DNA from: Shigella phage ESh27
Strand: one strand, 5' to 3'
Length of the DNA: 64,000 bases
Sequence record: ON528737
Part shown: positions 3,001-64,000 of the stretch, one piece after another
Layout: each line of letters starts with the position of its first letter
Position numbering within the stretch: position 1 is the first letter of the stretch
Program-made: the position numbers and the translations under genes
The notes under the pieces: model-generated
What the model saw: the letters and a program-made list of their open reading frames with translations, nothing else
Databases searched by the model: none
What the model was told of the DNA's origin: nothing

Positions 3001-3533
3001 TAGATTTTGGGTGCGTCATTAAAACTGAACGAACCTGTTGTCCTCTAAAGTTTACAATACTTTGAGCCTCTGCAGTAATTTGAACTTTTACATAGCCTAC
3101 TCTACCGCCAATATCAGACAAAATAACTGTATCGCCATCTAAAGGATTTTGAGGCAAAGTGAAATTAATATCAGTGCCAGCTGAAGTATCAACCGCGATA
3201 GAGTTACCTACTGATAATTGGAAATCTCCGCCTTGAACTGTAATCCATTCTGCATCTGTACGAGTTGCCTTCCATTTAGCCAAAGAGAAAGGGCCCGCCG
3301 GAGCTGGAATATCGTTTAAAGCTTGATAAAAACGATTATCATAAAGAACAATAAAATCTTTTGTATACGCGCGCGTCTCGTCATAATTCTGTACGGTGTT
3401 TTCTTGCACCAAAAAGTCAACGTTCACGCCATCGGTGCCAACTGTGCGGTCAGCAAGCGCAACGTTAACTATCTTATCACCGCCTGCGTCAAGACCATCT
3501 TCGGCCCTGAACTTACGTTTGATGTCAACCATG
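1..3533 (-). CDS. 34: Long tail fiber proximal subunit gp34, N-terminal ~1177 codons; C-terminus lies beyond window start
   Basis: Minus-strand ATG at 3531-3533 gives MVDIKRKFRAEDGLDAGGDK, matching T4 gp34 N-terminus; frame spot-checked at window start (SIDINDSAVYSQFPGYW); not in ORF track because no stop in window. Confidence 0.88.
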
Positions 3534-3566
3534 GTAGTCCTCTTATCATTATGTGTTCTATTTTAC

Positions 3567-3574
3567 TATTTATA
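3567..3574 (-). promoter_or_regulatory. T4-type late promoter (TATAAATA) for gene 34
   Basis: Plus-strand tatttata = minus TATAAATA, ~35 nt upstream of gp34 ATG. Confidence 0.6.
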
Positions 3575-3652
3575 AATGAGTAAAAGACTATTTACGCTTT
3601 CGAACTAGTATGTTACTATAGTCCAAGTTGACTAACTGAACAAGAGGTTCAT

Positions 3653-4570
3653 ATGGATTTAGAAATGATGTTGGATGAGGATTACAAAGAAGGTATTGCA
3701 CTTGCAGACTTTAGTAACATTGCATTAGCAGCTGCATTAAACAACTTTGAAGACGGTGATAAAATTACTGTTCCGATGGTTCGCCATGTAATCTTGAATT
3801 CAATTCGTAAAAACGTAGTGATGTTCCGTAAGCAAGGTTATACAAAATTTGTATTGTGCATGGATAACGCTACTTCCGGGTATTGGCGACGCGACTTTGC
3901 TTACTATTACAAGAAAAATCGTAAAACTGATCGTGAAGCTTCAAAGTGGGATTGGGAAGGATATTTTACTGCACTCCATCAAGTCGTTGATGAGATTAAG
4001 AAATATATGCCATACGTTGTAATGGATATTGACAAATACGAAGCGGATGACCATATCGGTGTATTAACTAAATATTTGTCATTAGCTGGTCATAAGGTGT
4101 GTATTGTTGCATCAGATGGTGACTTTACACAATTACACAAATACCCTAACGTTAAACAGTGGTCGCCACCGCAGAAAAAATGGGTTAAAATTAAGAATGG
4201 TTCTGCCGAAATTGATTGCATGACTAAAATTCTTAAAGGCGACCGTAAAGATGGTGTTGCGTCTGTTCGAGTTCGTGGTGATTTCTGGTTTACTCGAGTT
4301 GAAGGCGAACGAACTCCGAGTATGAAAACAACGATTATTGAAGCAATTGCTAATGACCGTTCTCAAGCTGAAGTATTATTAAGTGCAGAAGAATATAAAC
4401 GGTATCAAGAAAATTTGGTTCTCATTGATTTTGATTATATCCCTGATAATATTGCTTCAACCATTATAGAGTATTATAACTCATATAAACAACAACCTAA
4501 AGGCAAGATTTATTCATACTTTGTAAAATCCGGCCTTTCTAAATTAACAAGTGTAATTAACGAATTCTGA
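3653..4570 (+). CDS. rnh: RNase H (5'-3' exonuclease / flap endonuclease)
   Basis: 305 aa; MDLEMMLDEDYKEG N-terminus as in T4 RNase H; SD aagagg; divergent from gene 34 as in T4. Confidence 0.93.
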   Translation: MDLEMMLDEDYKEGIALADFSNIALAAALNNFEDGDKITVPMVRHVILNSIRKNVVMFRKQGYTKFVLCMDNATSGYWRRDFAYYYKKNRKTDREASKWDWEGYFTALHQVVDEIKKYMPYVVMDIDKYEADDHIGVLTKYLSLAGHKVCIVASDGDFTQLHKYPNVKQWSPPQKKWVKIKNGSAEIDCMTKILKGDRKDGVASVRVRGDFWFTRVEGERTPSMKTTIIEAIANDRSQAEVLLSAEEYKRYQENLVLIDFDYIPDNIASTIIEYYNSYKQQPKGKIYSYFVKSGLSKLTSVINEF

Positions 4571-7651: not shown

Positions 7652-8239
7652 ATGCTTAAATTAGTATTCGCGTGTGCTCCGACTAAAACAGTTGATGATA
7701 AACTGGAATATGCTTTTGGATTAGGTGATGGGCTGCCATGGAAGCATATCAAACAAGATATGAGTAACTTTGTTGCTCGCACTAAAAACACTGTAATGGT
7801 TATGGGTGCTAAGACTTTTGCATCATTACCTCGTCTACTCCCAGATCGTACTCATGTGGTTGTCACTGATATGGCCAGAAAACTGCCTAGGACTAAAACT
7901 GATGAACTTGCACGGTTCTATATCACCCAAGCAGAATTTATTACCTTGGTAATGGGTAGTGAAATTAACTTGTTAAGCCCTTCAACCGACGTACCGTTTA
8001 AACTTTCTACTGAACATGTCGATGTCTCGGTTATCGGCGGTCCTGCTCTACTTAAACAAGCATTGCCTTATGCTGATGAAATTGTTATGACTAAAATCAT
8101 TAAGAAATGTCGTGTTAATTCAGACGTTCAACTTGATAAAGATTTCATCCAAGATATTATGCTTCAACGTTCTATGGTAGAATCTCATTACTACAGAATC
8201 GATGAACTCACCGAAATTACTGAGAGCGTATATAAATGA
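7652..8239 (+). CDS. frd: Dihydrofolate reductase
   Basis: 195 aa; FGLGDGLPW, VIGGPALL, C-terminal TESVYK as in T4 DHFR. Confidence 0.95.
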   Translation: MLKLVFACAPTKTVDDKLEYAFGLGDGLPWKHIKQDMSNFVARTKNTVMVMGAKTFASLPRLLPDRTHVVVTDMARKLPRTKTDELARFYITQAEFITLVMGSEINLLSPSTDVPFKLSTEHVDVSVIGGPALLKQALPYADEIVMTKIIKKCRVNSDVQLDKDFIQDIMLQRSMVESHYYRIDELTEITESVYK

Positions 8240-9096
8240 AACAATACCAATACCTGATTAATGATATCCTAGAAAATGGCTACGAAACAGACGACCGTAC
8301 AGGCACAGGAACAATTGCCCTGTTCGGAACTAAATTACGTTGGGATCTGACTAAAGGATTCCCTGCAGTAACAACTAAGAAATTAGCATGGAAAGCTTGT
8401 ATTGCCGAGTTACTGTGGTTCATGTCAGGTTCTACTAATGTTAATGAATTACGTCTTCGTACTCATGGTAGTCTAATTGAAGGTAAAACTATTTGGGACG
8501 ATAATTACGAAAATCAGGCAAAAGACCTTGGTTATCATAGTGGTGAACTTGGTCCTATATATGGTAAACAATGGCGTGATTTCGGTGGTGTGGACCAATT
8601 AGTTGAAACAATCGACCGTATTAAAAAATTACCAACTGATCGCCGTCAAATTGTTTCTGCCTGGAATCCGGCCGAAATAAATCAAATGGCTCTTCCTCCT
8701 TGCCATATGTTCTATCAGTTCAATGTGCGTAATGGTCATCTTGATTTACAATGGTATCAACGCAGTGTAGATGTTTTCTTGGGCCTGCCGTTCAACATTG
8801 CCTCGTACGCTGCCTTGACGCATATTGTGGCTAAGATGTGTAATCTTATCCCGGGTGATTTAGTGTTCTCAGGCGGCAATACGCATATCTACAGCAACCA
8901 CGTAGAGCAATGCAAAGAAGTTTTACGTCGTGAACCTAAAGAGTTGTGTTCTCTTGAAATTAATTGGCCTAGTAATTTTGAGAATTGGCCTACAAAAATC
9001 CAAATGGACTGGGTTACTGGAACGATGACACATTCTGATTTCGTTCTTAAAAATTACGAATCACATCCAGCTATCAAAGCTAAAATGGCGGTATAA
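8236..9096 (+). CDS. td: Thymidylate synthase (uninterrupted, no group I intron)
   Basis: 286 aa continuous ORF; active-site PPCH motif; T4 TS is 286 aa. Confidence 0.95.
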   Translation: MKQYQYLINDILENGYETDDRTGTGTIALFGTKLRWDLTKGFPAVTTKKLAWKACIAELLWFMSGSTNVNELRLRTHGSLIEGKTIWDDNYENQAKDLGYHSGELGPIYGKQWRDFGGVDQLVETIDRIKKLPTDRRQIVSAWNPAEINQMALPPCHMFYQFNVRNGHLDLQWYQRSVDVFLGLPFNIASYAALTHIVAKMCNLIPGDLVFSGGNTHIYSNHVEQCKEVLRREPKELCSLEINWPSNFENWPTKIQMDWVTGTMTHSDFVLKNYESHPAIKAKMAV

Positions 9097-9097
9097 A

Positions 9098-9352
9098 ATG
9101 ATTTTACGTTTTATTAATTCATATGGCACCACAATTTTTGAAATGAAAAATCCAAGTGAACTGGATATCCCTTCACCAAATAGTGAAATCACAGTTAAAG
9201 GTGAACGATTCGTTTGTTATTCACATGAACGAATTTATGAATATCGTGAATTTTGTGGTGGATTCGGTATGGAAAAAGAACCATTGGTTTATTTCGATAT
9301 CACGGTCTTGACTCCTAAAGAATACAAAGAAATTATTGCTAAGAATAATTAA
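9098..9352 (+). CDS. Hypothetical protein
   Basis: 84 aa ORF between td and nrdA. Confidence 0.5.
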   Translation: MILRFINSYGTTIFEMKNPSELDIPSPNSEITVKGERFVCYSHERIYEYREFCGGFGMEKEPLVYFDITVLTPKEYKEIIAKNN

Positions 9353-9378
9353 CGCTTCAGTTTAAAAGTGTATAATAA
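9350..9378 (+). promoter_or_regulatory. Putative promoter with extended -10 (TGTATAAT) upstream of nrdA
   Basis: gtgtataat at ~9368-9376. Confidence 0.4.
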
Positions 9379-9439
9379 ATTAACGGGATAAATACTATCC
9401 CGTTTGGAGTAATGTCTATCAACCTATACCGAGGAATAT

Positions 9440-11695
9440 ATGCAAGTAACTAAGAGCAGTGGGGTATCCCAAAATTTTGATGCACAGAAAATTATTCAAG
9501 TATTAACTTGGCAATGTGAAGGAACACAAATCGACCCATATGAATTGTACGAAGAAATTAAGACCCATCTTGTTGACGGGATGAGCACCAAAGATATTCA
9601 GAAGATTTGTATTAAAGTTGCAGCCAACTCGATTTCTGTCGAAGAACCTGATTATCAATATGTTGCCGCTAAAGGATTAATGTTTGCACTTCGTAAAGAT
9701 GTGTACGGACAGTTTGAACCTCCTGCTTTTATCGACCATATCTCGTATTGTGTTAATGAAGGCAAATACGACCCTGAGTTGTTGTCTAGATATTCTGCAG
9801 AAGAAATCATTTATCTCGATTCTCAGATTAAACATGAACGAGATTTTGATCTGACTTATGCTGGTGCTATGCAGCTTAAAGAAAAATACCTGGTTAAAGA
9901 TAAAACAACTGGGAAGATTTATGAAACTCCACAGTTTGCTATCATGGCTATTGGTATGGCCTTACATCAAGACGAAACTCATGACCGTTTGAAACATATT
10001 ATTCGTTTTTATGATGCTGTTTCTACTCATCAAGTTTCATTGCCTACCCCAATTATGGCAGGTGCTCGTACTCCAACTCGCCAGTTCTCTAGTTGTGTAG
10101 TTATTGAAGCCGGTGATTCGTTAAAATCTATTAACAAAACTTCAGCATCAATTATTGAATATATTTCTAAACGAGCTGGTATTGGTATCAACGTTGGTAT
10201 GCTTCGTGCAGAAGGTTCTAAGATCGGTACGGGTGAAGTTCGACATACGGGTGTTATTCCGTTCTGGAAACATTTCCAAACTGCAGTAAAATCTTGTTCT
10301 CAAGGTGGTATTCGTGGTGGTGCTGCTACGGCGTATTATCCGATGTGGCACTTAGAAGTAGAGAACCTGTTGGTTCTGAAAAATAACAAAGGTGTGGATG
10401 AAAACCGTATTCGACATATGGACTACGGAATTCAGATTAATGACCTTATGATGGAACGCCTTGGTAAAAATGATTATATTACTTTATTTAGCCCTCACGA
10501 AATGTCAGGCGAACTATATTACTCATTCTTTGAAGATCAAGATAAATTCCGTGAGCTTTATGAGAAAGCTGAAAAAGACCCAACAATCAGAAAGAAAAGA
10601 ATCAAAGCACTAGAACTCTTTGAATTGTTCATGACTGAACGTTCTGGTACTGCTCGAATTTATCCACAGTTTGTTGATAACACGAATAACTACACTCCGT
10701 TTATTCGTGAAAAAGCTCCAATTCGTCAGAGTAACTTATGCTGTGAAATCGCTATTCCAACTAATGATGTGAATGGTCCTGATGCTGAAATTGGTTTATG
10801 TACGCTGTCTGCATTCGTGCTAGATAACTTTGATTGGCAAGACCAAGACAAAATTAATGAGCTCGCTGAAGTCCAGGTACGTGCATTGGATAATCTATTA
10901 GATTATCAAAGCTATCCTGTTCCTGAAGCTCTGAAGGCTAAGAAACGTCGTAACTTGGGTGTCGGTGTGACGAACTATGCTGCATGGTTAGCTTCTAACT
11001 TTGCTTCATATGAAGACGCTAACGATTTGACTCATGAATTGTTTGAGAGATTGCAATATGGCCTTATCAAAGCTTCAATCAAACTCGCCAAAGAAAAAGG
11101 ACCTTGTGAGTATTATTCAGACACTAAATGGTCTAGAGGCGAATTACCTATCGACTGGTACAATAAAAAGATTGACCAAATCGCAGCCCCGAACTACGTC
11201 TGTGACTGGGAAGAACTTCGAGCTGAACTCAAAGAACATGGAATTCGTAACAGTACACTTAGTGCTCTCATGCCATGCGAATCAAGCAGTCAAGTCTCAA
11301 ATAGCACAAACGGTATAGAACCACCTCGTGGACCTGTAAGTATTAAAGAATCTAAAGAAGGCAACTTCCGTCAGGTTGTTCCTAATATCGAACATAACAT
11401 GAGTCTTTACGACTACGCGTGGAAACTTGCTAAGAAAGGTAATAAACCTTATTTGACCCAAGTTGCTATCATGTTGAAATGGGTGTGCCAATCTGCTTCT
11501 GCTAATACTTACTATGACCCGGCAGTATTTGAGAAAGGTAAAGTGCCAATGTCAGTAATGCTTGACGATCTGCTTTACTTCTGGTACTTTGGCGGAAAAA
11601 ATCTCTACTATCATAACACTCGTGATGGGTCAGGTACAGATGACTATGAATTAGAAACACCTAAAGCCGAAGATTGCTCTGCTTGTAAGCTTTAA
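9440..11695 (+). CDS. nrdA: Aerobic ribonucleoside-diphosphate reductase large subunit
   Basis: 751 aa; ATP-cone N-terminus, catalytic NLCCEI and C-terminal CxxC; T4 NrdA ~754 aa. Confidence 0.95.
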   Translation: MQVTKSSGVSQNFDAQKIIQVLTWQCEGTQIDPYELYEEIKTHLVDGMSTKDIQKICIKVAANSISVEEPDYQYVAAKGLMFALRKDVYGQFEPPAFIDHISYCVNEGKYDPELLSRYSAEEIIYLDSQIKHERDFDLTYAGAMQLKEKYLVKDKTTGKIYETPQFAIMAIGMALHQDETHDRLKHIIRFYDAVSTHQVSLPTPIMAGARTPTRQFSSCVVIEAGDSLKSINKTSASIIEYISKRAGIGINVGMLRAEGSKIGTGEVRHTGVIPFWKHFQTAVKSCSQGGIRGGAATAYYPMWHLEVENLLVLKNNKGVDENRIRHMDYGIQINDLMMERLGKNDYITLFSPHEMSGELYYSFFEDQDKFRELYEKAEKDPTIRKKRIKALELFELFMTERSGTARIYPQFVDNTNNYTPFIREKAPIRQSNLCCEIAIPTNDVNGPDAEIGLCTLSAFVLDNFDWQDQDKINELAEVQVRALDNLLDYQSYPVPEALKAKKRRNLGVGVTNYAAWLASNFASYEDANDLTHELFERLQYGLIKASIKLAKEKGPCEYYSDTKWSRGELPIDWYNKKIDQIAAPNYVCDWEELRAELKEHGIRNSTLSALMPCESSSQVSNSTNGIEPPRGPVSIKESKEGNFRQVVPNIEHNMSLYDYAWKLAKKGNKPYLTQVAIMLKWVCQSASANTYYDPAVFEKGKVPMSVMLDDLLYFWYFGGKNLYYHNTRDGSGTDDYELETPKAEDCSACKL

Positions 11696-11750
11696 GACTT
11701 TTGATTATAATTTACTCATGGATGAGTTAATAACTAAGTGAGAAAATATA

Positions 11751-12926
11751 ATGAGTACAGTTTTTAACACGCAACAAGTCGATGTTTTGAATGAACCGAT
11801 GTTCTTTGGTTCTGGTCTTGGCCTCGCACGGTATGATATTCAGCGTCATAAAGTTTTCGAAGAACTTATTGAAAAGCAATTGTCGTTTTTCTGGCGCCCA
11901 GAAGAGGTAAACTTGATGTTGGACTCTGCGCAGTTCAATAAGCTTCCTCAGTTCCAACAGGACATCTTTACAAACAATCTTAAGTATCAATCATTATTAG
12001 ATTCTATACAAGGCAGGGCCCCATCTGCGGTACTTATGGCACTTATTTCTGACCCTTCATTAGATACATGGGTTGCAACATGGACATTCAGTGAAACTAT
12101 TCACTCTCGTTCATATACTCATATTATGCGAAATCTTTATACCGATCCATCTAAGGTATTTGATGAAATTGTATTAGACGAAGCAATCATGAAACGAGCT
12201 GAATCAATAGGTAAATATTATGATGATGTTCTAGTCAAGACTCGCCATTGGGAAAATGCTAAGGAAAATTATGAGTATTCACTAGGCTCATGCCAGCAGA
12301 ATGATATTGAGATGTACGAAGAAATAATGTTTAACGCCAAGCGTGAGCTAATGAAATCTCTTTATCTCTGTTTGCACGTTATCAACTCCTTAGAAGCTAT
12401 TCGTTTTTACGTATCATTTGCATGTACTTTCAACTTCCATAAAAATATGGAAATTATGGAAGGCAATGCAAAGATTATGAAGTTCATTGCTCGTGACGAA
12501 CAACTCCACCTTAAGGGTACTCAGTACATTATCCGTCAACTTCAATCTGGTACTGACGGCGATGAGTGGGTTCAAATTGCTAAAGAATGTGAACAAGAAG
12601 CAGTTGACATTTTTATGGAAGTAAATAGTCAAGAGAAGGAATGGGCTGCGCACCTCTTTAAAGACGGTACATGTCCAGGTATAAATACACAGAGTATGTG
12701 TGCTTTTGTTGATTACTTGACTGTGTCTCGTATGAAACAGTGTGGTTTGCCGTGTCCAATTACTGATGCTCCGACCAAACATCCGTATCCTTGGATTCGT
12801 GAATATCTGAACTCTGATTTAGTTCAAGCAGCTCCTCAGGAAGTTGAAATCAGTTCTTATCTTGTTGCACAAATTGATAATGATGTAGACCAAAATGTAA
12901 TCAATTCATACAAAAAATATTTCTAA
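11751..12926 (+). CDS. nrdB: Ribonucleoside-diphosphate reductase small subunit (uninterrupted, no intron)
   Basis: 391 aa continuous ORF; di-iron ligand motifs (ExxH). Confidence 0.95.
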   Translation: MSTVFNTQQVDVLNEPMFFGSGLGLARYDIQRHKVFEELIEKQLSFFWRPEEVNLMLDSAQFNKLPQFQQDIFTNNLKYQSLLDSIQGRAPSAVLMALISDPSLDTWVATWTFSETIHSRSYTHIMRNLYTDPSKVFDEIVLDEAIMKRAESIGKYYDDVLVKTRHWENAKENYEYSLGSCQQNDIEMYEEIMFNAKRELMKSLYLCLHVINSLEAIRFYVSFACTFNFHKNMEIMEGNAKIMKFIARDEQLHLKGTQYIIRQLQSGTDGDEWVQIAKECEQEAVDIFMEVNSQEKEWAAHLFKDGTCPGINTQSMCAFVDYLTVSRMKQCGLPCPITDAPTKHPYPWIREYLNSDLVQAAPQEVEISSYLVAQIDNDVDQNVINSYKKYF

Positions 12927-12952: not shown

Positions 12953-13363
12953 ATGAAAGATATTGCCGCCGAATATTCCTTTATTAAATATATAGAATTG
13001 GAGCTATTAGAAGATGCAACAATTAAAACCATTGATGCCCCTAATAAGAAAAATGTCATATACGCTATTGCTATAGATGACGAACTTGTGTATATTGGTA
13101 AAACCAAGAATTTAAAGAAACGCATTAACTATTATCGAACAGCCATAAATCGAAAAGACCAGACTTCAGATTCAAGAAAATCACTTATGATTTTGGATGC
13201 CTTAATGCAAGGCAAAAAGGTTGAATTCTGGGCCCGCCAATGTTTTGACCTTTCAGTCACTAACGAACTCGGTTCAATGACCATTGCAACAATGGACCTT
13301 GAAGAACCGCTTTTTATCAAAAAGTTCAACCCGCCTTGGAATATCCAACATAAGAAAAAGTAG
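12953..13363 (+). CDS. denA: Endonuclease II (GIY-YIG family, host DNA degradation)
   Basis: 136 aa; YAIAIDDELVYIGKT...RINYY motif; C-terminus PLFIKKFNPPWNIQHKKK as in T4 DenA. Confidence 0.92.
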   Translation: MKDIAAEYSFIKYIELELLEDATIKTIDAPNKKNVIYAIAIDDELVYIGKTKNLKKRINYYRTAINRKDQTSDSRKSLMILDALMQGKKVEFWARQCFDLSVTNELGSMTIATMDLEEPLFIKKFNPPWNIQHKKK

Positions 13364-35178: not shown

Positions 35179-35186
35179 TATTTATA
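35179..35186 (-). promoter_or_regulatory. T4-type late promoter (TATAAATA) for gene 51
   Basis: Plus tatttata = minus TATAAATA, 18 nt upstream of gp51 ATG. Confidence 0.65.
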
Positions 35187-35190
35187 AATA
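35183..35190 (+). promoter_or_regulatory. T4-type late promoter (TATAAATA) for gene 26; overlaps the divergent gene 51 promoter
   Basis: tataaata 19 nt upstream of gp26 ATG; palindromic tatttataaata core. Confidence 0.65.
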
Positions 35191-37463: not shown

Positions 37464-38978
37464 TTATAAATTAATTGTTTTCATTACATAGTTAAATTTC
37501 TCATCAGCGTAACGTTGGATACGATCAATACCGTGTTTTAACAAGTAATTAAGATGAGTATACTTCTTTTTAGTATTTAATGATTTAGGTTTTACACCTG
37601 CGTCATCGATGAGATCCCAAACTGTAGCAACAGCTTTAGAACCATGCTTACGAAGCACGCGACCTACGGTTTGAAGTACGATAATTTTTGATTTAACACC
37701 ATGGGCAAAAATAACATGATGAAGATTCTTGACTGAAATACCGGTAGAGAATACTCCATATGATGCGACAATAATAATGCCTTTACCATTTTCTGCCATG
37801 ACTTTAAGCGCGTTACGTGTTTCAGTATCAACTTCACCTGATACGTAATAAACTTTTTCGTATCCAAGCTCTTTAATAGCTTCAAATATTTCTTTACCGT
37901 GTGTAACGTGTTTAAACATTACAAAGGCGTTCTCGTCTTTCTTAGCCAATTTGACTGAAAGTTGAGCAATCCACTTTGTGCGTCGTTTTAGTCCGGTAAT
38001 AATTTTAACTTCTTCTTGGTATGTTTTACCTTTTAATTTGGTGGCGAATTCGTCCGGATAACGAAGGAAAATACTATTAATCTTAAGCTCAGTTACCTGT
38101 CCGTCTTCCATTAATTTAGACGTGCTAACAGGACGGAAGATTTCGCCGAACATACCTACGTACTGCATTACATTGGCTTTTCCGTCTCTTAATGAGCCGG
38201 ATAAACCGAATTTAAACATGCAATTATTTAATCCTGAGATGATTGAAGAAATACTTTTGCCTGTTGCTAAGTGGCATTCATCGTTCATCATCATACCGAA
38301 CTGAGAGAACCATTCTTTAGGCTGCTTAACTACCGTTTGCCATGTGCCAACAATAATTGGAGCGTCGTTTTTAGATTTGTCCGCTTTATCAGCACCACCG
38401 CCAATTTTCTTAATCATCGAATGACTAAACAAGCGATAATCAACAAAATCATTAGCCATCTGGGTTGTCAATGCTGTTGTAGGGACGATAATGAGAATTT
38501 TACCTTCATAGTTCTCTAGATAATATCGAGCTAAAAGTGCTTGGATTAGTGATTTACCTGCTGATGTCGGAAGGTTTAAAATTCGACGACGATTAACTAG
38601 TCCTTCATATACTGCATCTTTTTGATACCAATGTGGTTCGATTTTGGCATTGCCTGAATAAATTTCTTGTTTAGAAAGCCATGCGTCAAAATCTTCCCTG
38701 GTAAGGTCTTCGGTCTCAAAGATTTTAGGGTCAATCCATACAGAATAACTCATATTGTTACAGAACTTTTTTATTTGTCCTACAAGTCCATATGGTAACA
38801 AACGATTGTAATCTAAAAGTCGAATTCTACCATCCCAGTTCCCATATTTGTAACGCGGGTTGAATTTGTACCCATCGGCTTCAAAGCTAAAAAAGTCGCG
38901 TAATTCATAGAACACGCTTTCGTCGCATTCAATTCTTACATGGCTAAAATCATAAAAATGTACTTTAATATCTGTCAT
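37464..38978 (-). CDS. uvsW: UvsW DNA helicase (SF2)
   Basis: 504 aa; Walker A PTSAGKS, DECH box (NDECHLATG); matches T4 UvsW. Confidence 0.95.
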   Translation of the reverse strand: MTDIKVHFYDFSHVRIECDESVFYELRDFFSFEADGYKFNPRYKYGNWDGRIRLLDYNRLLPYGLVGQIKKFCNNMSYSVWIDPKIFETEDLTREDFDAWLSKQEIYSGNAKIEPHWYQKDAVYEGLVNRRRILNLPTSAGKSLIQALLARYYLENYEGKILIIVPTTALTTQMANDFVDYRLFSHSMIKKIGGGADKADKSKNDAPIIVGTWQTVVKQPKEWFSQFGMMMNDECHLATGKSISSIISGLNNCMFKFGLSGSLRDGKANVMQYVGMFGEIFRPVSTSKLMEDGQVTELKINSIFLRYPDEFATKLKGKTYQEEVKIITGLKRRTKWIAQLSVKLAKKDENAFVMFKHVTHGKEIFEAIKELGYEKVYYVSGEVDTETRNALKVMAENGKGIIIVASYGVFSTGISVKNLHHVIFAHGVKSKIIVLQTVGRVLRKHGSKAVATVWDLIDDAGVKPKSLNTKKKYTHLNYLLKHGIDRIQRYADEKFNYVMKTINL

Positions 38979-38983
38979 AATAA

Positions 38984-39727
38984 TTACCTTAAACGGCCTT
39001 TAACATATCCATCTGGGATGGATAACGGATTTACTAATTTATTTATAGCCCCGTTATTTACCCATATTCTGCCGGTGGTCGTAGGTTTTACTTCACAACC
39101 CTTTCTAGATTTTCTATTAAGTTGGACCATTCCTTTTACAAATCCTTCAGGCATCGGGTCCTCGGCTGATATAAATCTGTTTTCTTTACCGTTGTTAACA
39201 CAAATTTTATTTAGAGTTGTAGGATTTTTAGGACCTTTAATTTTATCAATCTTTGGCTTTCCTGTACCATACCGCCCGTGGCATGTTGGGTCTTCAGAGT
39301 ATCGACGTTTATTTGTTTCAGATAGTTTTCTTTTTGTTTCTTCCGATCTGTGTTTTCCTAAAAGATTATGACCAAGCCTCTTTATTCGTTCTTTAGCACT
39401 ATTAGACATTTTAGTCTTATCAGCTTCGGTGTACTTATACCTTCCACCTTCACCGCCTTGGCGCATATTATAATACTCGTTAGATTTGACCAAATCCTCT
39501 GTTACTAACTGAGCTTCGTATTCTAAAGCTTCAGCGGAAGTTTCAAATTGTTTAATTATTGAACGTTTAAATGATTCTTCTCCGTATTTTTTGATAGCGC
39601 GATTTAAGGCAACACCTGACCCTAGATACGAATCATTTAAATTTTCTGTAGAATGTTTGCCAATGTACTTTTTACCATTGATTAAATTTACGGTCTCATA
39701 AACAAAGTGATACATACTCTTTTCCAT
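38984..39727 (-). CDS. GIY-YIG family homing endonuclease (SegE-like)
   Basis: GIY-YIG N-terminal module (FVYETVNLINGKKYIGKHST...YLGSGV...N...E) and basic DNA-binding C-terminus; start taken at ATG 39725-39727 (alternative 39713-39715, MYHFVYET); track start 39766 lies upstream of the late promoter. Confidence 0.7.
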   Translation of the reverse strand: MEKSMYHFVYETVNLINGKKYIGKHSTENLNDSYLGSGVALNRAIKKYGEESFKRSIIKQFETSAEALEYEAQLVTEDLVKSNEYYNMRQGGEGGRYKYTEADKTKMSNSAKERIKRLGHNLLGKHRSEETKRKLSETNKRRYSEDPTCHGRYGTGKPKIDKIKGPKNPTTLNKICVNNGKENRFISAEDPMPEGFVKGMVQLNRKSRKGCEVKPTTTGRIWVNNGAINKLVNPLSIPDGYVKGRLR

Positions 39728-39743
39728 GTAATAAATATAGTTA

Positions 39744-39751
39744 TATTTATA
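39744..39751 (-). promoter_or_regulatory. T4-type late promoter (TATAAATA) for the GIY-YIG endonuclease gene
   Basis: Plus tatttata = minus TATAAATA, ~17 nt upstream of the endonuclease ATG. Confidence 0.55.
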
Positions 39752-39764
39752 ATGAGGAAATATC

Positions 39765-40433
39765 ATGATCGATAAAGACTATATTGAAGAGTTACGTGCT
39801 CTTTCTGATAAAAAGGAAGCCAAAGCTAAACTGTTCGAATATGCGAAACAATTTGGCATTAGTGTTAAGAAAACAAAATCATTCGATAATATTGTTATTG
39901 ATATCGAAGAAGCTCTTAACGCACTGGCTGATGAACCGTTACCTGAAACTGATGGATTATCTATTACTGATTTAATTACTGCCGCAGATGATGTGGACGG
40001 TGTTAATTTCACCAACGAAGAAGTTAAAGAAGAAGCTATTCTGTTGTTTGATTCTCCAACAGAACAAGTTGAAGTATTAGAAGTTGTCGAACAAGAAAAA
40101 GAATTCGACCATGATAAATTTGAAGAAGCAATTACTCAGGTTGTTGAATCTGAAAAGGAGCCTGAGACAGAGGTAAATAAAGAAGTAAAATTTGTTCTGC
40201 CTGAAAATTTTAGTCCTACACTCATTAAATTAGGCAAAGGCCTAGGATATGTTACTGTTCCTTGGTGGATTTATCAATGGATAGCCGAAACACCTGATTG
40301 GAAATCTCGCCCAACCAGTTTTGTGCACGCTTCTGCTCACCAAACATTATTTAGCTTAATTTATTATATTAATCGCGATGGATCAGTTCTAATTCGTGAA
40401 ACTCGTAATTCTTCTTTCATAACATTAAAATAA
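39765..40433 (+). CDS. inh: Inh, inhibitor of prohead protease gp21
   Basis: 222 aa acidic protein immediately upstream of hoc, as T4 inh. Confidence 0.7.
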   Translation: MIDKDYIEELRALSDKKEAKAKLFEYAKQFGISVKKTKSFDNIVIDIEEALNALADEPLPETDGLSITDLITAADDVDGVNFTNEEVKEEAILLFDSPTEQVEVLEVVEQEKEFDHDKFEEAITQVVESEKEPETEVNKEVKFVLPENFSPTLIKLGKGLGYVTVPWWIYQWIAETPDWKSRPTSFVHASAHQTLFSLIYYINRDGSVLIRETRNSSFITLK

Positions 40434-40442
40434 GGATAACTT

Positions 40443-41858
40443 ATGACATTCACTGTCACGTTATCTCCTTTAACTCCTACAGGGGTTATTGGAGGTTCAC
40501 AAACATTCACTGCTACACCTGCAGGTGAAACTCCAGATGGTACTATTACATATGTCTGGACTGTAGATGATATAGCACAGGAGTCTACGGCTGCTACAAT
40601 GGATTATACTCTTGCTTCTCCGGCAGGAACAAAAAAAATTAAAGTGGTTGCAACTAATACACTTTCCGCAGGAGATCCGGAAATAGCTGAAGCGTCAACA
40701 ACTATCACTGTTAATAAGAAAGAAAATAATTCTACCGTCGCTGTTACTCCGGCTTCTCCGGCGGCAGTAGAAATTGGAACAGCAACAACATTCACTGCTA
40801 ATGTAAGCAATCAACCTAGTGGTGCTGCTATTGCTTATACATGGAAAGTTGATGGGGTCGCTGTTGATGGTCAAAAGCAATCAACCTTTGAATATACACC
40901 AACAACTGAAGGAACTAAGTCTATAACTTGCTCTGTCACAGTGACTGCAACTGATTACGTTGATAAAACAGTAGAATCATCAGCGGTTTCTTTGACTGTA
41001 AATAAAAAGGCTAATTCTTCAACACTAAAAATTACGCCTGAGTCTCCGACTACAGTCTTTGGTGTTCCTATTACTTTAACTGCAAATGTCTCCGGTGCAC
41101 CTTCAGGTGCTACTACATCATTCCAGTGGTCAATGGATGACAGTAATATTCCAGATGCAACTTCTGCTACGTATAAATTCACTCCAACCGAGGTCGGAAG
41201 TAAAACTCTTAAATGCACCGTATCTGTTTCTGCATCAAATTATGTTACAAAAGAAATTTCAGCAGAAGCAACAGTAGTAACTAATAATGCTACATTTAAT
41301 AGTGCCACCATTTCTTTATCTCCCCCATCAGTTAATACTACTGTTGGTGGAACTGCAACTTTAACAGCATCTGTTACTGGTGCTCCAGGTGATACTAATA
41401 TTGTGTATTCTTGGAAGAAAGACAACGTAGCAGAAAGTAATTCTACTAATACTTACAGTATTGATACCTCCTCAGCTGGTACTCATACAATTAAAGTTGA
41501 AGCAGTATTAACTAAAGATAACTATACTTCAAAGACAATTAGTTCAACCGCTGAAGTTGTTATTGCTGAACGGACTCCAATTGAACCAGAAGGTGAACTA
41601 CCTTATGTTCATCCTCTTCCACACCGTACTTCAGCTTACATCTGGTGTGGTTGGTGGGTTATGGATGAAATCCAAAAAATGACTGAAGAAGGTAAAGATT
41701 GGAAAATTGACGATCCAGGTAGTAAGTATTACTTGCATCGTTATACGCTTCAGAAGATGATGAAAGACTATCCAGAAGTTGATGTTCAAGAATCACGTAA
41801 TGGATACATCATCCATAAAACTGCGCTAGAAACTGGTATCATTTATACATATCCATAA
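40443..41858 (+). CDS. hoc: Hoc, highly immunogenic outer capsid protein, with four tandem Ig-like repeats
   Basis: 471 aa; four ~95-aa repeats each with TFTA/TLTA..(S/T)G...Y.W...D pattern, plus C-terminal capsid-binding region; T4 Hoc is 376 aa. Confidence 0.85.
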   Translation: MTFTVTLSPLTPTGVIGGSQTFTATPAGETPDGTITYVWTVDDIAQESTAATMDYTLASPAGTKKIKVVATNTLSAGDPEIAEASTTITVNKKENNSTVAVTPASPAAVEIGTATTFTANVSNQPSGAAIAYTWKVDGVAVDGQKQSTFEYTPTTEGTKSITCSVTVTATDYVDKTVESSAVSLTVNKKANSSTLKITPESPTTVFGVPITLTANVSGAPSGATTSFQWSMDDSNIPDATSATYKFTPTEVGSKTLKCTVSVSASNYVTKEISAEATVVTNNATFNSATISLSPPSVNTTVGGTATLTASVTGAPGDTNIVYSWKKDNVAESNSTNTYSIDTSSAGTHTIKVEAVLTKDNYTSKTISSTAEVVIAERTPIEPEGELPYVHPLPHRTSAYIWCGWWVMDEIQKMTEEGKDWKIDDPGSKYYLHRYTLQKMMKDYPEVDVQESRNGYIIHKTALETGIIYTYP

Positions 41859-44847: not shown

Positions 44848-44873
44848 TGCATTTTTCCTTATGTGATATAGAT

Positions 44874-44881
44874 TATTTATA
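44874..44881 (-). promoter_or_regulatory. T4-type late promoter (TATAAATA) for gene 24
   Basis: Plus tatttata = minus TATAAATA, ~27 nt upstream of gp24 ATG. Confidence 0.65.
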
Positions 44882-44887
44882 AAGATT

Positions 44888-44917
44888 GTTTACAACGTAT
44901 TTGGTATGTGATACTAT
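44888..44917 (+). promoter_or_regulatory. T4-type early promoter (GTTTAC ... TGATACTATAGAC) between late genes 24 and 23
   Basis: gtttac 44888-44893; tactat 44912-44917. Confidence 0.6.
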
Positions 44918-44947
44918 AGACTTATTAACTACAGAGGAGTAAACAAA

Positions 44948-45217
44948 ATGACTAAAGCACGTTTCTTACGAGATACTTTAAAAGTTCTGGAAGCTGAAGC
45001 GGTTAAGTTAGTAGAAAAATATGGTGCAAAAGTTAATGGTAATGCCTTCAACAAAGTATGGATGAAAGTTGATTCTGAAGCTCGAGCTAAAGGCTATTGG
45101 GCCACCGATAAACTTGCATCATTCAAAAACAAAGACGGTTCTCCAGCATATGTCCAAGAAGGTATGCCTAATTGGCAAAATATTTTGAAAACTTACATCG
45201 AAATTGCACAGAAATAA
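44948..45217 (+). CDS. Hypothetical early protein embedded between capsid genes 24 and 23
   Basis: 89 aa; strong SD gaggagtaaacaaaatg; own early promoter. Confidence 0.6.
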   Translation: MTKARFLRDTLKVLEAEAVKLVEKYGAKVNGNAFNKVWMKVDSEARAKGYWATDKLASFKNKDGSPAYVQEGMPNWQNILKTYIEIAQK

Positions 45218-45245
45218 AACCAAAAATGGGAGACCGAAGTCTCCC
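45218..45245 (-). terminator. Intrinsic terminator after gene 23 (minus-strand GGGAGACTTCGGTCTCCC + T-run)
   Basis: Third copy of the same 18-nt hairpin; on the minus strand followed by atttttg. Confidence 0.75.
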
Positions 45246-45269
45246 AAAATAAGATTTAATCAATTAAGA

Positions 45270-59644: not shown

Positions 59645-61195
59645 TTAGTAATGGACTTTAATAATATAATTTAAAGATATATTCCATGGACGAGTCTCAT
59701 ATCCGATAAGTCCTTCACGGTTAAGAGTGCCTGTTGCGTCGCGGTGACCGCCTAATTCGAAGCCGTCATTTGTGAAATATGATGCGTTATCCCAATCAGC
59801 GTATTTTCTAGTACCCAAATAACCTTGATATACGGATGCTCCGAATGGTGCCTCATGACGTTGATATTCGCCCCATCCACCGGCGTGTTTATGATATGAC
59901 ATTTGCTGTGCTTGGACACCACCAACATGCATACCGTCACATCCTACACCTAATCTATCCTTTCCATAGCCGTCTTGACCGCGATTATTTAAAATATGGC
60001 TGCCTGTACCAGCTCCTCTAACAAAAAGACCGCGCATGTCTGGAATTCCAGGATTATTCCAATCACCGCCAAATCTCGTTCCAACCACATTTCGATAGTC
60101 CGGAAATTGGTTCCCAGAAACGGTCCCGCCATGACATAAAACCCAACCTGGAGGAGCGCTATCACCTGCGAACATTTGAATTGTTCCAACAGGAACACGT
60201 TCAGATGCGTATCGCTCTGTTGCAACCGGCTGGTCACCGTTTTTCCACATTCCACCACGTGACCAAATTCCGTTTGCTGTGAGATGGTCTAAATTTAAAG
60301 AACCATTAATAGTTTGCCCACCGCGTGTATTAATTACATCTGCGTTCCATGCTAATGCTCCAGAGCTATCGCCTTCGGGTGCAACACCGGCCTGTGTCGT
60401 TAATTTTACGACTCCACGCATAGAACCGGTAGCTCCTCTACCATTTAGCGTTTCACCTGTTACAGCAACATCTCCTAAATTACTATTAATTTCCGTTTGT
60501 GTTCCTAGACGTATAACACCTTTATATTCTTGTGTTGCAACAGAATTCATAAAGGTATACGGGGAAATTGCATATCCTTCGCGAAGAGTTCCTTGACGTG
60601 TTTGAGCCACCGTAGCTAAACGCACAACACCGGTAATAGATTCTGAAGCCGGGTCGTTATTAGGAGCTATTTGAGAAATTAATTTTATTGCTAATTGCTG
60701 AGTTTTAAGCGGTGTCATTGCTGTGGTATCATCAGACCCGGCAAGTGCAGCGGTTTGAGTTGCAATTTTAATAACACCATTAGTTGTTTCGGTGGAATAA
60801 CGAGTAGAGAACGTGTTATCAATAGTTTGGTTTAATTTAAGCGGAGTAATAGAAACAGTGTCTAAAGTGCCGGCAATGGCTTCCTCTTGTGTTGCATATT
60901 TAGTTACACCGTATTGTGTTTCTGACGCGTTCGGATACTGAAGTCTTGCATTTAATGTGGCGGGTGTAACAGCTTTAGTACTATTAAATCCATCAAGAAC
61001 TTCTTGTTCTGTCGCTAATTGAATTACACCTTTTTCTGCTTCACTTGCGTCCGGAACACCTTTAACACCGTATGCGCTAATTGAGGCTAAGGCTGCCTGG
61101 ACATTGGTTATTGAACTATCAAAATTTGACCCTACCGGGTCAAATTCAACATATACAGATTCGTTCGAAACGTGTTGATATGTATTGTTACTCAT
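59645..61195 (-). CDS. 12: Short tail fiber gp12
   Basis: 516 aa (T4 gp12 527 aa); N-terminal ATQ..GT...ITP repeats shared with gp34; synteny. Confidence 0.9.
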
Positions 61196-61869
61196 GCGGT
61201 TCTCACAAAATAATAAAAGGTTGTAGGTGAAATATGGTTGTCAAGAGTAATGGTTTGCGCACCTAGTAAATTCCAAGTGCCGTACCCGGACTTAGCCTGA
61301 GACACTATTTCTTGAGAAACCGTGATACCATAAGAGGAATACGTTGGGAGTACGTGTCTTTGGTTATCTAAATATGTTATTTGTAATTTAGTCCCAACAG
61401 TAGGGTCATCTTTATACTCTGCAATAGCCAATTGGTCGGAAATCGCATTCCGGAGAGTAGTACGTAATTGTACAACAAATTCGTCGGCGGTCATACCTAC
61501 AGTAGCATTAACAGGAAGTCCATAAACTTTTACAATAACAGGGCTTCCATCGGGCAAACTAGGGTCAGTTACACTTCCACTAAAGGACCAATAATCTACC
61601 TGTGAAGTTCCTTCAGGAGATACACCTGAGGTGTTAATTGTAACTGTTCCTACATCTGCTCTAGCAATATTATGAACATCGTTTATTGCAGATTCTACGT
61701 TATCATCATAGAATCCTTTTGCCAATTGAGAAATAGTTACAGAACCTACGCCTTGGTTGTTTAAAATATCAATTTGAGTAGGATTTTTTCTAAATCCTAA
61801 AAAATCTGCTTCGCGGGATATTACTCCCGCTTTAGTACTAAGTATGGTCATTATGCAATCCTTACCCAA
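61192..61869 (-). CDS. 11: Baseplate wedge subunit gp11 (short tail fiber connector)
   Basis: 225 aa (T4 gp11 219 aa); synteny. Confidence 0.88.
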
Positions 61870-63665
61870 CGGTATACGGTAATTGACGGTTGAATATTAT
61901 TTACAGCTTGAGGCGGTACGTGTGTACTATTCGTTGTGGCGTGGCCTTCACGGTATTTGGTGTATATAGGACCTTCTGCATCAGGGTCGTATTGACAACC
62001 ACCAATAATAATTGTGCCGTTCTCATCGGAAATAAGAACTTTCTCGTCAGTTTGAGTAGGAGGTAAATCAGAATTAGTTAGTGTGTTAGACGTTGTTCCG
62101 ACTGTTCCACCGGCGGTATGTGTAGGATTCCCGCTAGAATCAAGGTCGTTATTATTTAATGCAAAATTAGGATCGCTAATATCGTCGTTCCATCCAACTA
62201 ATACTTTTCCTTGTCCCCATAATTTCCAAGAGCCAAATCCTAAATATGTGGCTGGGTTATTAGGGTTCACTGCATTTTCGTAAATAGTACCGACAGGGTA
62301 AATAGTGTTAAAAATATTTGCAATAGATGAGAATTCCCTGCTATATGTCGGAACAGGTTCTACATTAGGCCATCCGATATTATTGAAATCGGTCAAAGCC
62401 ACATCGCCTGTCACATTTACGGTTGCACCTTGTGCGACATACCTTTCATCAGTTGTATCTAAAATGTCATCGATACTTAATAAAGTGCCTAAATCGTTAT
62501 TAAACCATGTAATATCAATAATGTCTTGGTCTTCAAACTTACGGTCAAAGACTAAAGCACGTGCGATAGTTGCATCGTTATCATCATATTCAATAGAATA
62601 ATCTGTGTTAGATGTAACCCAAGTCCCACCTAAAGCTGAACACTCAGTAGAAGTTTCTGCGTCAGCTCCTTCACATCTGAACATAGGTAAACCAACAGTA
62701 CCAGCTAATTCTTGAAGAATACCGTTAAAACGAACTTCTAAAGAATTGGTATTGACCGGTTCTGAAGGATTAACTCCAAATGCGGAAAAAGGAATAGATT
62801 TCAAAGTTGACAAATCAGCAACATATACACTTCCTTCTAAGGAAGGACGGGTTGTTAATTTCGAATCTAAAATACGTATTTGGCGGCGAGAATAAGAACT
62901 ACGTAATTGTGTAATCCCATCTAAAAAGGTTTCAATTTGTACAGTGTCGCCGATATTACATGGTTGTCTTAAACGGATGTTTTTACCGTCTAATGCAACG
63001 ATTTCACCAGGATTAGCTCCTGGAGAACCAAAGTCACTATTGTCACTGAACACATCACCGTAGTATAATTCGTTACCACGATGTTTTACACGGATATTAT
63101 TCACATTATAAGAAACAGACCCAAATACATCAAGAAAATCAGTTTGACCTTGAACTTCGACTAAAAATTCTTTACGAGCTACACTACTAATATCAGAACT
63201 AGTAATTTTGTCTATTTGTTTATTTTTAACATATTCCCAGCGTCCAGGAGAACAGTAAACTAATTCTAAGTCTGAAAACTGCACATTGATTTCTACTGGG
63301 CTGGAAGAACCTTTAATAGTATCACCGCTGGCAGCAATTAATGTTACAGGGTTAATATTCCACGTGGCGAATACATCACGGGCTCTAATTACTTTATTAT
63401 AATCTTCCACTGTTCCTTTAGGTAAATTTATAGAAACACGCCCTGTTGAAGTATCAATTGCGTATGATTTACCCCATTCAGCAGCTAAATTAAGTCCATC
63501 TGAAGAATGGTATGTTTTCCAGGCACCAGCGGAATATGGAACTTCGCCATCGCCTAATTCATAATACAACTCATCAAAGTTTTCATTAATTTTTGCACCA
63601 CCACGACGAAGGTAATCGCCTTGTCCGTCATCAACGACGTTCCCAATTTTAATATTTTGTTTCAT
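61851..63665 (-). CDS. 10: Baseplate wedge subunit and tail pin gp10
   Basis: 604 aa (T4 gp10 602 aa); synteny. Confidence 0.9.
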
Positions 63666-64000
63666 TATTGAGCGACCCTAATTTTCTGAGTTGAAATAAC
63701 TTTAGCTGCCACTCGAAGACCATTTATACGTGAAGAAACTGTCATAGTGGCAAAATTGTTAATTATCGAAAAACTAATATTCGCAATTTCATCTTCTTCG
63801 TTATCATTACCAACGCGCATCACTGCGTATTCGGTTGAAATAACTCTTGAATTAATTGTATCTATTAGAATATTTATTTCGCATGATTTAATTTTTCTGC
63901 CGTTGGCAGATTGGCATGTAACCAAAAGTTTAGCAGCATTATATTCAGTTTTATAAAATAGAGGAATATTGACATAGTCTGAAATAATATTCCATGTCCC
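63665..64000 (-). CDS. 9: Baseplate wedge protein gp9 (long tail fiber connector), 3' part only; start lies beyond window end
   Basis: Minus-strand ORF open to the window edge; position upstream of gene 10 as in T4. Confidence 0.75.
   Translation of the reverse strand, partial: GTWNIISDYVNIPLFYKTEYNAAKLLVTCQSANGRKIKSCEINILIDTINSRVISTEYAVMRVGNDNEEDEIANISFSIINNFATMTVSSRINGLRVAAKVISTQKIRVAQ

Follow-up and report, generated by a model that had tools for sequence, protein, structure and literature searches.

The inh-uvsW locus

The stretch of DNA analysed here (64,000 nt; hereafter the window) belongs to a T4-like Mosigvirus genome, with Escherichia phage p000y as the best DNA match (99.8%). Between inh, the gene for the prohead protease inhibitor, and the helicase gene uvsW lies a third gene, which is co-oriented with uvsW and is not intron-borne (Table 1). 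The first-pass annotation had proposed a SegE-like GIY-YIG gene at this position, and the proposal is borne out by a Pfam SegE_GIY-YIG match as well as by the neighbours UvsW and inh. The uvsW product scored 152 bits against UvsW_N (PF21241). The inh product gave no Pfam match, and Phage_Inh_N/C domains were found in the corresponding gene of the metagenome contigs L023 and L024. The order of inh, a SegE-like gene and uvsW recurs in T4, in Erwinia phage Gravdalen and in both of these contigs.

Table 1. Features of the inh-uvsW locus, domains of the encoded endonuclease and a further GIY-YIG gene of the window
Feature	Position	Strand	Description	Evidence
EndoII/denA-like GIY-YIG protein	12953..13363	+	136 aa, just 3' of nrdB	PF01541, 28.1 bits
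uvsW helicase gene	37464..38978	-	downstream neighbour, probable target	Pfam UvsW_N, ResIII, DEAD, Helicase_C
uvsW 5' UTR and first 150 nt	38829..38986	-	probable target/co-conversion zone	carrier-only changes in UTR, at nt 6 and 9, codon 9 and codons 12-15
SegE-family GIY-YIG homing endonuclease gene	38984..39715	-	243 aa and stop	Pfam, conservation, structure model
AAGG	38987..38990	-	last codons of endonuclease gene, 8 nt before uvsW ATG	read from sequence
Presence/absence segment, 737 bp	38987..39723	-	8-nt leader AAAAGAGT and 243 codons	Mosigvirus alignment; T4 versus T2
Second TATAAATA	39040..39047	-	3' end of endonuclease gene, 61 nt before uvsW ATG	
In-frame upstream extension of longest ORF	39716..39766	-	overlaps promoter and inh start; probably untranslated	
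Late-promoter consensus TATAAATA	39744..39751	-	putative resident uvsW promoter, now 5' of endonuclease gene	motif, empty sites
inh (prohead protease inhibitor)	39765..40433	+	divergent neighbour	annotation in every close relative
GIY-YIG domain	aa 1-92			
NUMOD3-like helices, two	aa 97-141			
Beta-hairpin repeats, two	aa 170-183 and 217-228		xVNNGxxN...PxGaVKG	

Domain structure of the encoded protein

The reading frame is open over 260 codons (38984..39766, minus strand), and its translation includes VYETVNLINGKKYIGKHS and YLGSGV, the two motifs of the GIY-YIG module that had been quoted in the first-pass annotation. In Pfam searches, the product scored 29.7 bits against PF19835 (SegE_GIY-YIG; cut-off 25) and 25.8 bits against PF01541 (GIY-YIG; cut-off 22.6); NUMOD3 stayed under the Pfam threshold (17.1 versus a cut-off of 20.4), and the NCBIfam model "group I intron endonuclease" scored slightly under its cut-off. 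The PHROGs match was to "homing endonuclease" (3e-43). An AlphaFold model was built from 54 homologues; residues 1-92 had pLDDT values above 90, and the top PDB matches of the model were the I-TevI catalytic domain structures 1mk0 and 1ln0 (probability 1.00, target-normalised TM 0.62-0.65). By profile and fold, the gene is a member of the GIY-YIG nuclease superfamily. The C-terminal 151 residues are basic (35 K + R versus 15 D + E), as the first-pass annotation had described for this region.

At the sequence level, I-TevI was reached weakly by the 54-sequence profile (E = 0.05), and a single-sequence search of PDB sequences returned chance matches only. In the profile alignment, Y6, Y17, G19, E67 and N83 pair with I-TevI Y6, Y17, G19, E75 and N90, and Y6, Y17, E67 and N83 are invariant or nearly so across the 54 homologues. 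I-TevI residues 20-28 fall in an insertion of this weak alignment (E = 0.05), and helix alpha-1 of I-TevI, with Arg27, has no aligned counterpart in the window protein. Of the catalytic Arg, Glu and Asn on which the first-pass annotation had staked the assignment, Glu and Asn were recovered, while Arg was left unpaired. The missing Arg partner need not refute the endonuclease call: T4 SegE has the same local sequence and is reported to be active (PMC2330249).

Start codon of the endonuclease gene

Three in-frame ATG codons were considered as the start, at 39766 (260 aa), 39727 (247 aa) and 39715 (243 aa); the end coordinate 39760 of the first-pass annotation corresponds to none of them and is not a boundary of the reading frame. 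Translation probably begins at ATG 39715 to give a product of 243 aa that opens with MYHFVY, as judged from conservation. An alignment showed that the MYHFVY start is common to T4 SegE, the Gravdalen protein and a 243-aa NCBI protein (P0001) that is 100% identical to the 243-aa product, and the sequence GGAA is found 7 nt 5' of this ATG in the window and in T4 alike. We regard it as very unlikely that the real product is the longer protein of 260 or 247 aa, even though the frame is open from ATG 39766 and a 744-nt (247-aa) version is called in three GenBank records (seven of the ten carrying records annotate the gene, four of them at 732 nt and three at 744 nt). ATG 39766 precedes the promoter motif and is replaced by ATA in phage LF82-41, whereas ATG 39727 lies outside the insert, is also seen in empty-site genomes, reads TCG in T4 and is preceded by no ribosome-binding sequence. 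Both longer starts were thus rejected on the basis of the LF82-41 ATA, the T4 TCG, the empty-site sequence and the conservation of MYHFVY.

The first-pass annotation was therefore correct that the longest open reading frame over-calls the start, and its late-promoter consensus is present upstream of the gene. The distance of about 17 nt that it gave between promoter and start fits ATG 39727, which belongs to the resident empty-site sequence, and not the conserved start, which is 28 nt away.

Insertion point and distribution

The gene was present in 10 of 150 related phage records by DNA match, and a contiguous empty site was found in 478 phage records. In an alignment of seven carrying and six empty Mosigvirus loci, the six gene-free genomes read TATAAATAtaactatatttattacatgg joined to TAATTTGACATGactgac, followed directly by uvsW. 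The segment by which the two kinds of locus differ has boundaries that can be slid by 2 nt owing to a GG on either side, and the TAA stop of the endonuclease gene lies in sequence common to the empty site. A comparison of T4 with T2 gave the same junctions as in Mosigvirus. Moreover, the empty sites of T2 and Mosigvirus are near-identical, as the left flank and uvsW nt 1-42 match exactly and the 9-nt spacer is equal in length with two differences. By these comparisons, the insert is lodged between the putative uvsW late promoter and the uvsW start, and its own start codon is placed almost exactly at the former position of the uvsW start. The first-pass annotation had described a mobile cassette expressed from a late promoter; the presence or absence of the 737-bp segment agrees with such a cassette, but TATAAATA lies outside it and is present in the empty sites.

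The 11 copies that were compared are all intact and 732 nt long, differ at 0-4 nt and are at least 99.4% identical to one another. Seven of their nine variable sites are synonymous and two are not.

Transcription and translation signals

The window contains 19 copies of the late-promoter consensus TATAAATA, where 7.6 would be expected, and none of 100 shuffled sequences reached this count. The copy upstream of the endonuclease gene (39751..39744) stands 16 nt before ATG 39727 and 28 nt before ATG 39715, and inh starts 13 nt from it. The same motif was found at the same place in the empty sites of six Mosigvirus genomes and T2, 29 nt 5' of the uvsW ATG, and it is also conserved in T4, Gravdalen and L024. 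Because it is present in every empty site, the upstream TATAAATA is the resident late-promoter motif of uvsW, captured by the insert.

The second TATAAATA, which falls within the 3' end of the endonuclease coding sequence and spans the codons Ala-Ile-Asn-Lys, is a probable late promoter for uvsW. The window, Gravdalen and L023 have the exact consensus here, T4 and L024 have AATAAATA instead, and all five encode the Ile by ATA, a rare codon (9 of 183 Ile codons in five large genes of the window). The AAGG within the last codons of the gene is the probable Shine-Dalgarno sequence of uvsW; in T4, an AAGG stands 7 nt before the uvsW ATG despite the differing encoded amino acids. We found no terminator-like sites between the endonuclease gene and uvsW and no MotA-box middle promoters (TGCTT) on the strand of the gene within 38900..40000, and sigma-70-like sites were not more frequent than in shuffled sequence. 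RNA structures hide the ribosome-binding site in I-TevI and segB; at the present gene, structure masking the ribosome-binding site was not significant (z = 0.17, -0.52 and -0.23). For T4 segE, a promoter has been described in the non-coding region 5' of the gene, with another, internal one that serves the gene downstream (PMC2988022), and the two TATAAATA sites of the window gene agree with this pair. From the motif and the analogy with T4, we infer that the SegE-like gene is expressed late.

Some further signals were noted in and beyond the spacer. The inh-uvsW spacer contains a near-palindrome, TATAAATATAACTATATTTATTA (39730..39751), which reads TATAAATA toward uvsW and AATAAATA toward inh and resembles back-to-back divergent late promoters. 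In transcripts that read through from upstream, base pairing is possible between its UUUCC arm and the GGAAA that precedes the endonuclease start codon, with a fold no better than those of shuffled sequences (z = -0.52). Between the divergent baseplate hub genes (35179..35190), each strand has one TATAAATA and the two overlap, which makes them another probable divergent late-promoter pair.

Sequence variation at the 5' end of uvsW

The first 42 nt of uvsW in gene-free phages were found exactly in 440 phage records, T2 and Mosigvirus included. As a separate observation, the synonymous sites of this gene-free stretch (38937..38978) are also identical across at least two genera, and its conservation is far above that of the rest of uvsW, for which constraint on translation start or recombinational homogenisation could account.

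The Mosigvirus carriers depart from this sequence. All 11 of them are distinct from the non-carriers at nt 6 and 9 as well as in the UTR, and in 10 of the 11 the codons 12-15 are changed, every change being synonymous; the carrier-linked changes extend no farther than about 45 bp from the insertion point. At codon 9, the seven non-carriers examined all have TAT, whereas the 11 Mosigvirus carriers have CAT (five), CAC (three), CGC (one) or TAT (two, namely the window phage and BEU50), and the other carriers have CAC (T4), CAT (L023) or GAA (L024 and Gravdalen). Over uvsW nt 1-150, pairwise diversity amounts to 3.5-5.2 per 50 nt, compared with about 0.8 in the remainder, and the haplotype blocks are reshuffled. 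BEU50 has the gene together with a non-carrier-type patch at uvsW nt 36-81, thus a mosaic flank, and OLB35 and JM10 are gene-free but have the carrier haplotype at uvsW nt 60-150. The carriers are closely related to one another, so the co-occurrence of the gene with flank changes cannot be counted as independent events.

T4 SegE is an active endonuclease whose cleavage site, in RB30 and RB52, lies in the interval from hoc.1 to uvsW; its homing reaches an efficiency of almost 100% and is accompanied by co-conversion (PMC2330249), and uvsW is listed as its target gene (PMC2988022). The pattern at the 5' end of uvsW fits repeated break and repair there, with a putative target site at that end of the gene. 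Every gene-free phage examined has Tyr at UvsW residue 9, and most carriers, which come from several genera, have His, Arg or Glu there; this suggests that codon 9 may be part of the recognition or cleavage site and that carriers would avoid self-cutting at the price of an altered UvsW. The broader proposal that SegE-family endonucleases have repeatedly forced an amino-acid change in the host helicase UvsW is tentative, and we think it rather less probable than its contrary. Since the window phage and BEU50 keep TAT, codon 9 cannot be the sole protection; these two phages could be recent recipients that are still partly self-cutting.

Relation to known homing endonucleases

The open frame matches T4 SegE end to end (tblastn, residues 3-259, 50% identity, E = 4e-72; 62% identity over aligned columns). 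T4 segE is likewise located between inh and uvsW (PMC2988022 Table 1), and the window gene is for this reason a homologue of T4 SegE at the same locus, more than a look-alike. The two share the Pfam family, the insertion point between TATAAATA and the uvsW ATG, the pair of C-terminal repeats, an upstream promoter with an embedded promoter-like motif, and carrier base changes at the uvsW start (the GAT Asp codon, the CAT His-13 codon and the GTA Val-14 codon). However, T4 SegE has 205 aa compared with 243 aa in the window, it has no counterpart to the insert of about 50 aa (two NUMOD3-like helices) that separates the catalytic from the DNA-binding part of the window protein, and it ends in an 11-aa C-terminal tail that the window protein lacks. 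Its embedded motif is imperfect where that of the window is perfect, and it has been reported active (PMC2330249), whereas the window protein is known from sequence. Judging from the 50% identity and the longer linker, the window gene is a second, diverged SegE lineage at the insertion point of T4 segE. As the NUMOD3-like linker is absent from T4 SegE, cutting distance or specificity could differ, and the longer linker may move the cut away from the position used by T4 SegE.

The genes of Gravdalen (Winklervirus) and L023 resemble the window gene in their locus, in the NUMOD3-like linker and in a perfect embedded TATAAATA at the same codons, but have a single C-terminal repeat instead of two. 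The SegE variant of L023 (1980..2543; 183-187 aa) has Mosigvirus-like flanks, and its catalytic and NUMOD3 part is window-like while its C-terminal DNA-binding part is Gravdalen-like. This hybrid make-up suggests that modules have been exchanged within the SegE family.

With I-TevI, the window protein shares the GIY-YIG fold, the build of catalytic domain, linker and DNA-binding domain, NUMOD3-type elements and putative late-promoter control. I-TevI differs in being encoded in the T4 td intron and in having another target, and the sequence similarity is marginal (E = 0.05, with the family profile). For T4 SegF and SegG, the likeness lies in the expected biology, in which the competitor genome suffers a double-strand break and flanking markers are then co-converted, although their loci and targets are different. 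The cleavage site of a free-standing endonuclease can be hundreds to thousands of bp away from the gene that encodes it (PMC2988022).

Proposed mechanism and alternative explanations

On the sequence evidence, the Mosigvirus genome of the window very likely carries a free-standing homing endonuclease gene that belongs to the T4 SegE family, is intact and is probably active. This gene is an uncharacterised member of a familiar type, and several GenBank records already call it a homing endonuclease. According to the empty-site comparison, the gene follows the putative resident uvsW late promoter and precedes the start codon of uvsW. Late transcription would then start from the TATAAATA at 39751..39744, as the motif and T4 suggest, and translation from ATG 39715, as conservation suggests, would yield the 243-aa protein. 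Expression of uvsW would be sustained by co-transcription, by the AAGG in the last codons of the endonuclease gene and by the embedded TATAAATA. In a mixed infection with a gene-free relative, by analogy with T4 SegE, the enzyme would cut at the conserved inh-uvsW junction or the 5' end of uvsW, and repair off the carrier genome would copy the gene together with flanking uvsW sequence into the recipient, that is, homing with co-conversion and local marker exclusion. The carrier site itself may be shielded by the insertion and by the linked base changes at the uvsW start, as the comparative pattern indicates. Marker exclusion by the window gene is inferred from T4; the mosaic flank of BEU50 and the haplotype blocks are compatible with non-reciprocal inheritance and co-conversion.

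The gene might instead be an inactive or domesticated remnant, retained for its embedded uvsW promoter and ribosome-binding site rather than for homing. In favour of a remnant, a review of the T4 elements argues that endonuclease genes are more readily retained when promoters are embedded in them (PMC2988022), the gene contains both a perfect TATAAATA and an AAGG for uvsW, and the canonical Arg could not be aligned. Yet 11 of 11 copies are full length and free of stops with mostly synonymous differences, all residues invariant in the 54 family members are retained, the carrier-linked changes and the mosaic flank suggest recent cutting and repair, and T4 SegE, with the same motifs, is reported active (PMC2330249), so that we hold a mere remnant to be improbable. 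The patchy distribution might also reflect loss rather than invasion, if the gene were ancestral to Mosigvirus and had been deleted from most lineages. SegE-family genes at the same locus in several genera would accord with such a history, as would the presence of the carriers' haplotype at uvsW nt 60-150 in the gene-free OLB35 and JM10. This history appears highly improbable, however, since independent deletions would not recreate the near-identical empty sites of T2 and Mosigvirus; besides, the 11 copies are at least 99.4% identical to one another while T4 SegE stands at 50%, and BEU50 has the gene in a different flank haplotype. We therefore favour a probably active homing endonuclease gene that has invaded the locus.

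Beyond annotation, the import of this reading is slight: the gene start is corrected, and the upstream late promoter is assigned to uvsW and not to the cassette. The carrier and gene-free Mosigvirus genomes nevertheless amount to a natural experiment for mapping the SegE target and the co-conversion tracts, and the same set of genomes may reveal how a selfish gene shapes the first codons of the adjoining helicase gene. For phage-therapy cocktails that contain Mosigvirus phages, biased inheritance of the uvsW-inh-hoc region would be predicted in mixed infections.

Other endonuclease genes in the window

The first-pass annotation had regarded the gene as the only recognisable homing endonuclease gene in the window, and this was upheld. 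No second copy of the SegE-like protein was found in the 64,000-nt window by tblastn, and the window is collinear with phage NRG-P0074 except that four NRG-P0074 endonuclease genes are absent, namely the td intron endonuclease, a gene before nrdA, the nrdB intron endonuclease and a gene between genes 24 and 23. Conversely, there were no window-specific segments above 336 nt relative to NRG-P0074. At the places concerned (8236..12926 and 44848..45269), neither td nor nrdB is interrupted, and little sequence separates td from nrdA or gene 24 from gene 23. Endonuclease content is highly variable within the genus, as seen between the window and NRG-P0074. The GIY-YIG protein encoded just 3' of nrdB resembles T4 endonuclease II (denA). 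It was considered as a second homing endonuclease and rejected, as it is a conserved gene at its expected place after nrdB and its counterpart in NRG-P0074 is annotated plainly as "endonuclease".

Variation in other regions of the window

An 89-aa open reading frame lies between genes 24 and 23 (44948..45217; 44940..45213 compared), and it gave no DNA match to an ORF of similar size at the same place in NRG-P0074. The hoc gene (40443..41858, plus strand) encodes 471 aa in the window and in O157 typing phage 3, compared with 376 aa in most carriers of the SegE-like gene (p000y, NBG1, KAW3E185 and LF82-41). The difference in length probably corresponds to one additional Ig/PKD-like domain. In NRG-P0074, hoc is split into two annotated ORFs. 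Finally, identity to NRG-P0074, which is 92-98% elsewhere, falls to 78% in 52..3983 and to 74.5% in 60303..63968. These two parts of the window contain the proximal long tail fiber gene and the neck whisker/short tail fiber region, both of a kind that typically varies with host range.
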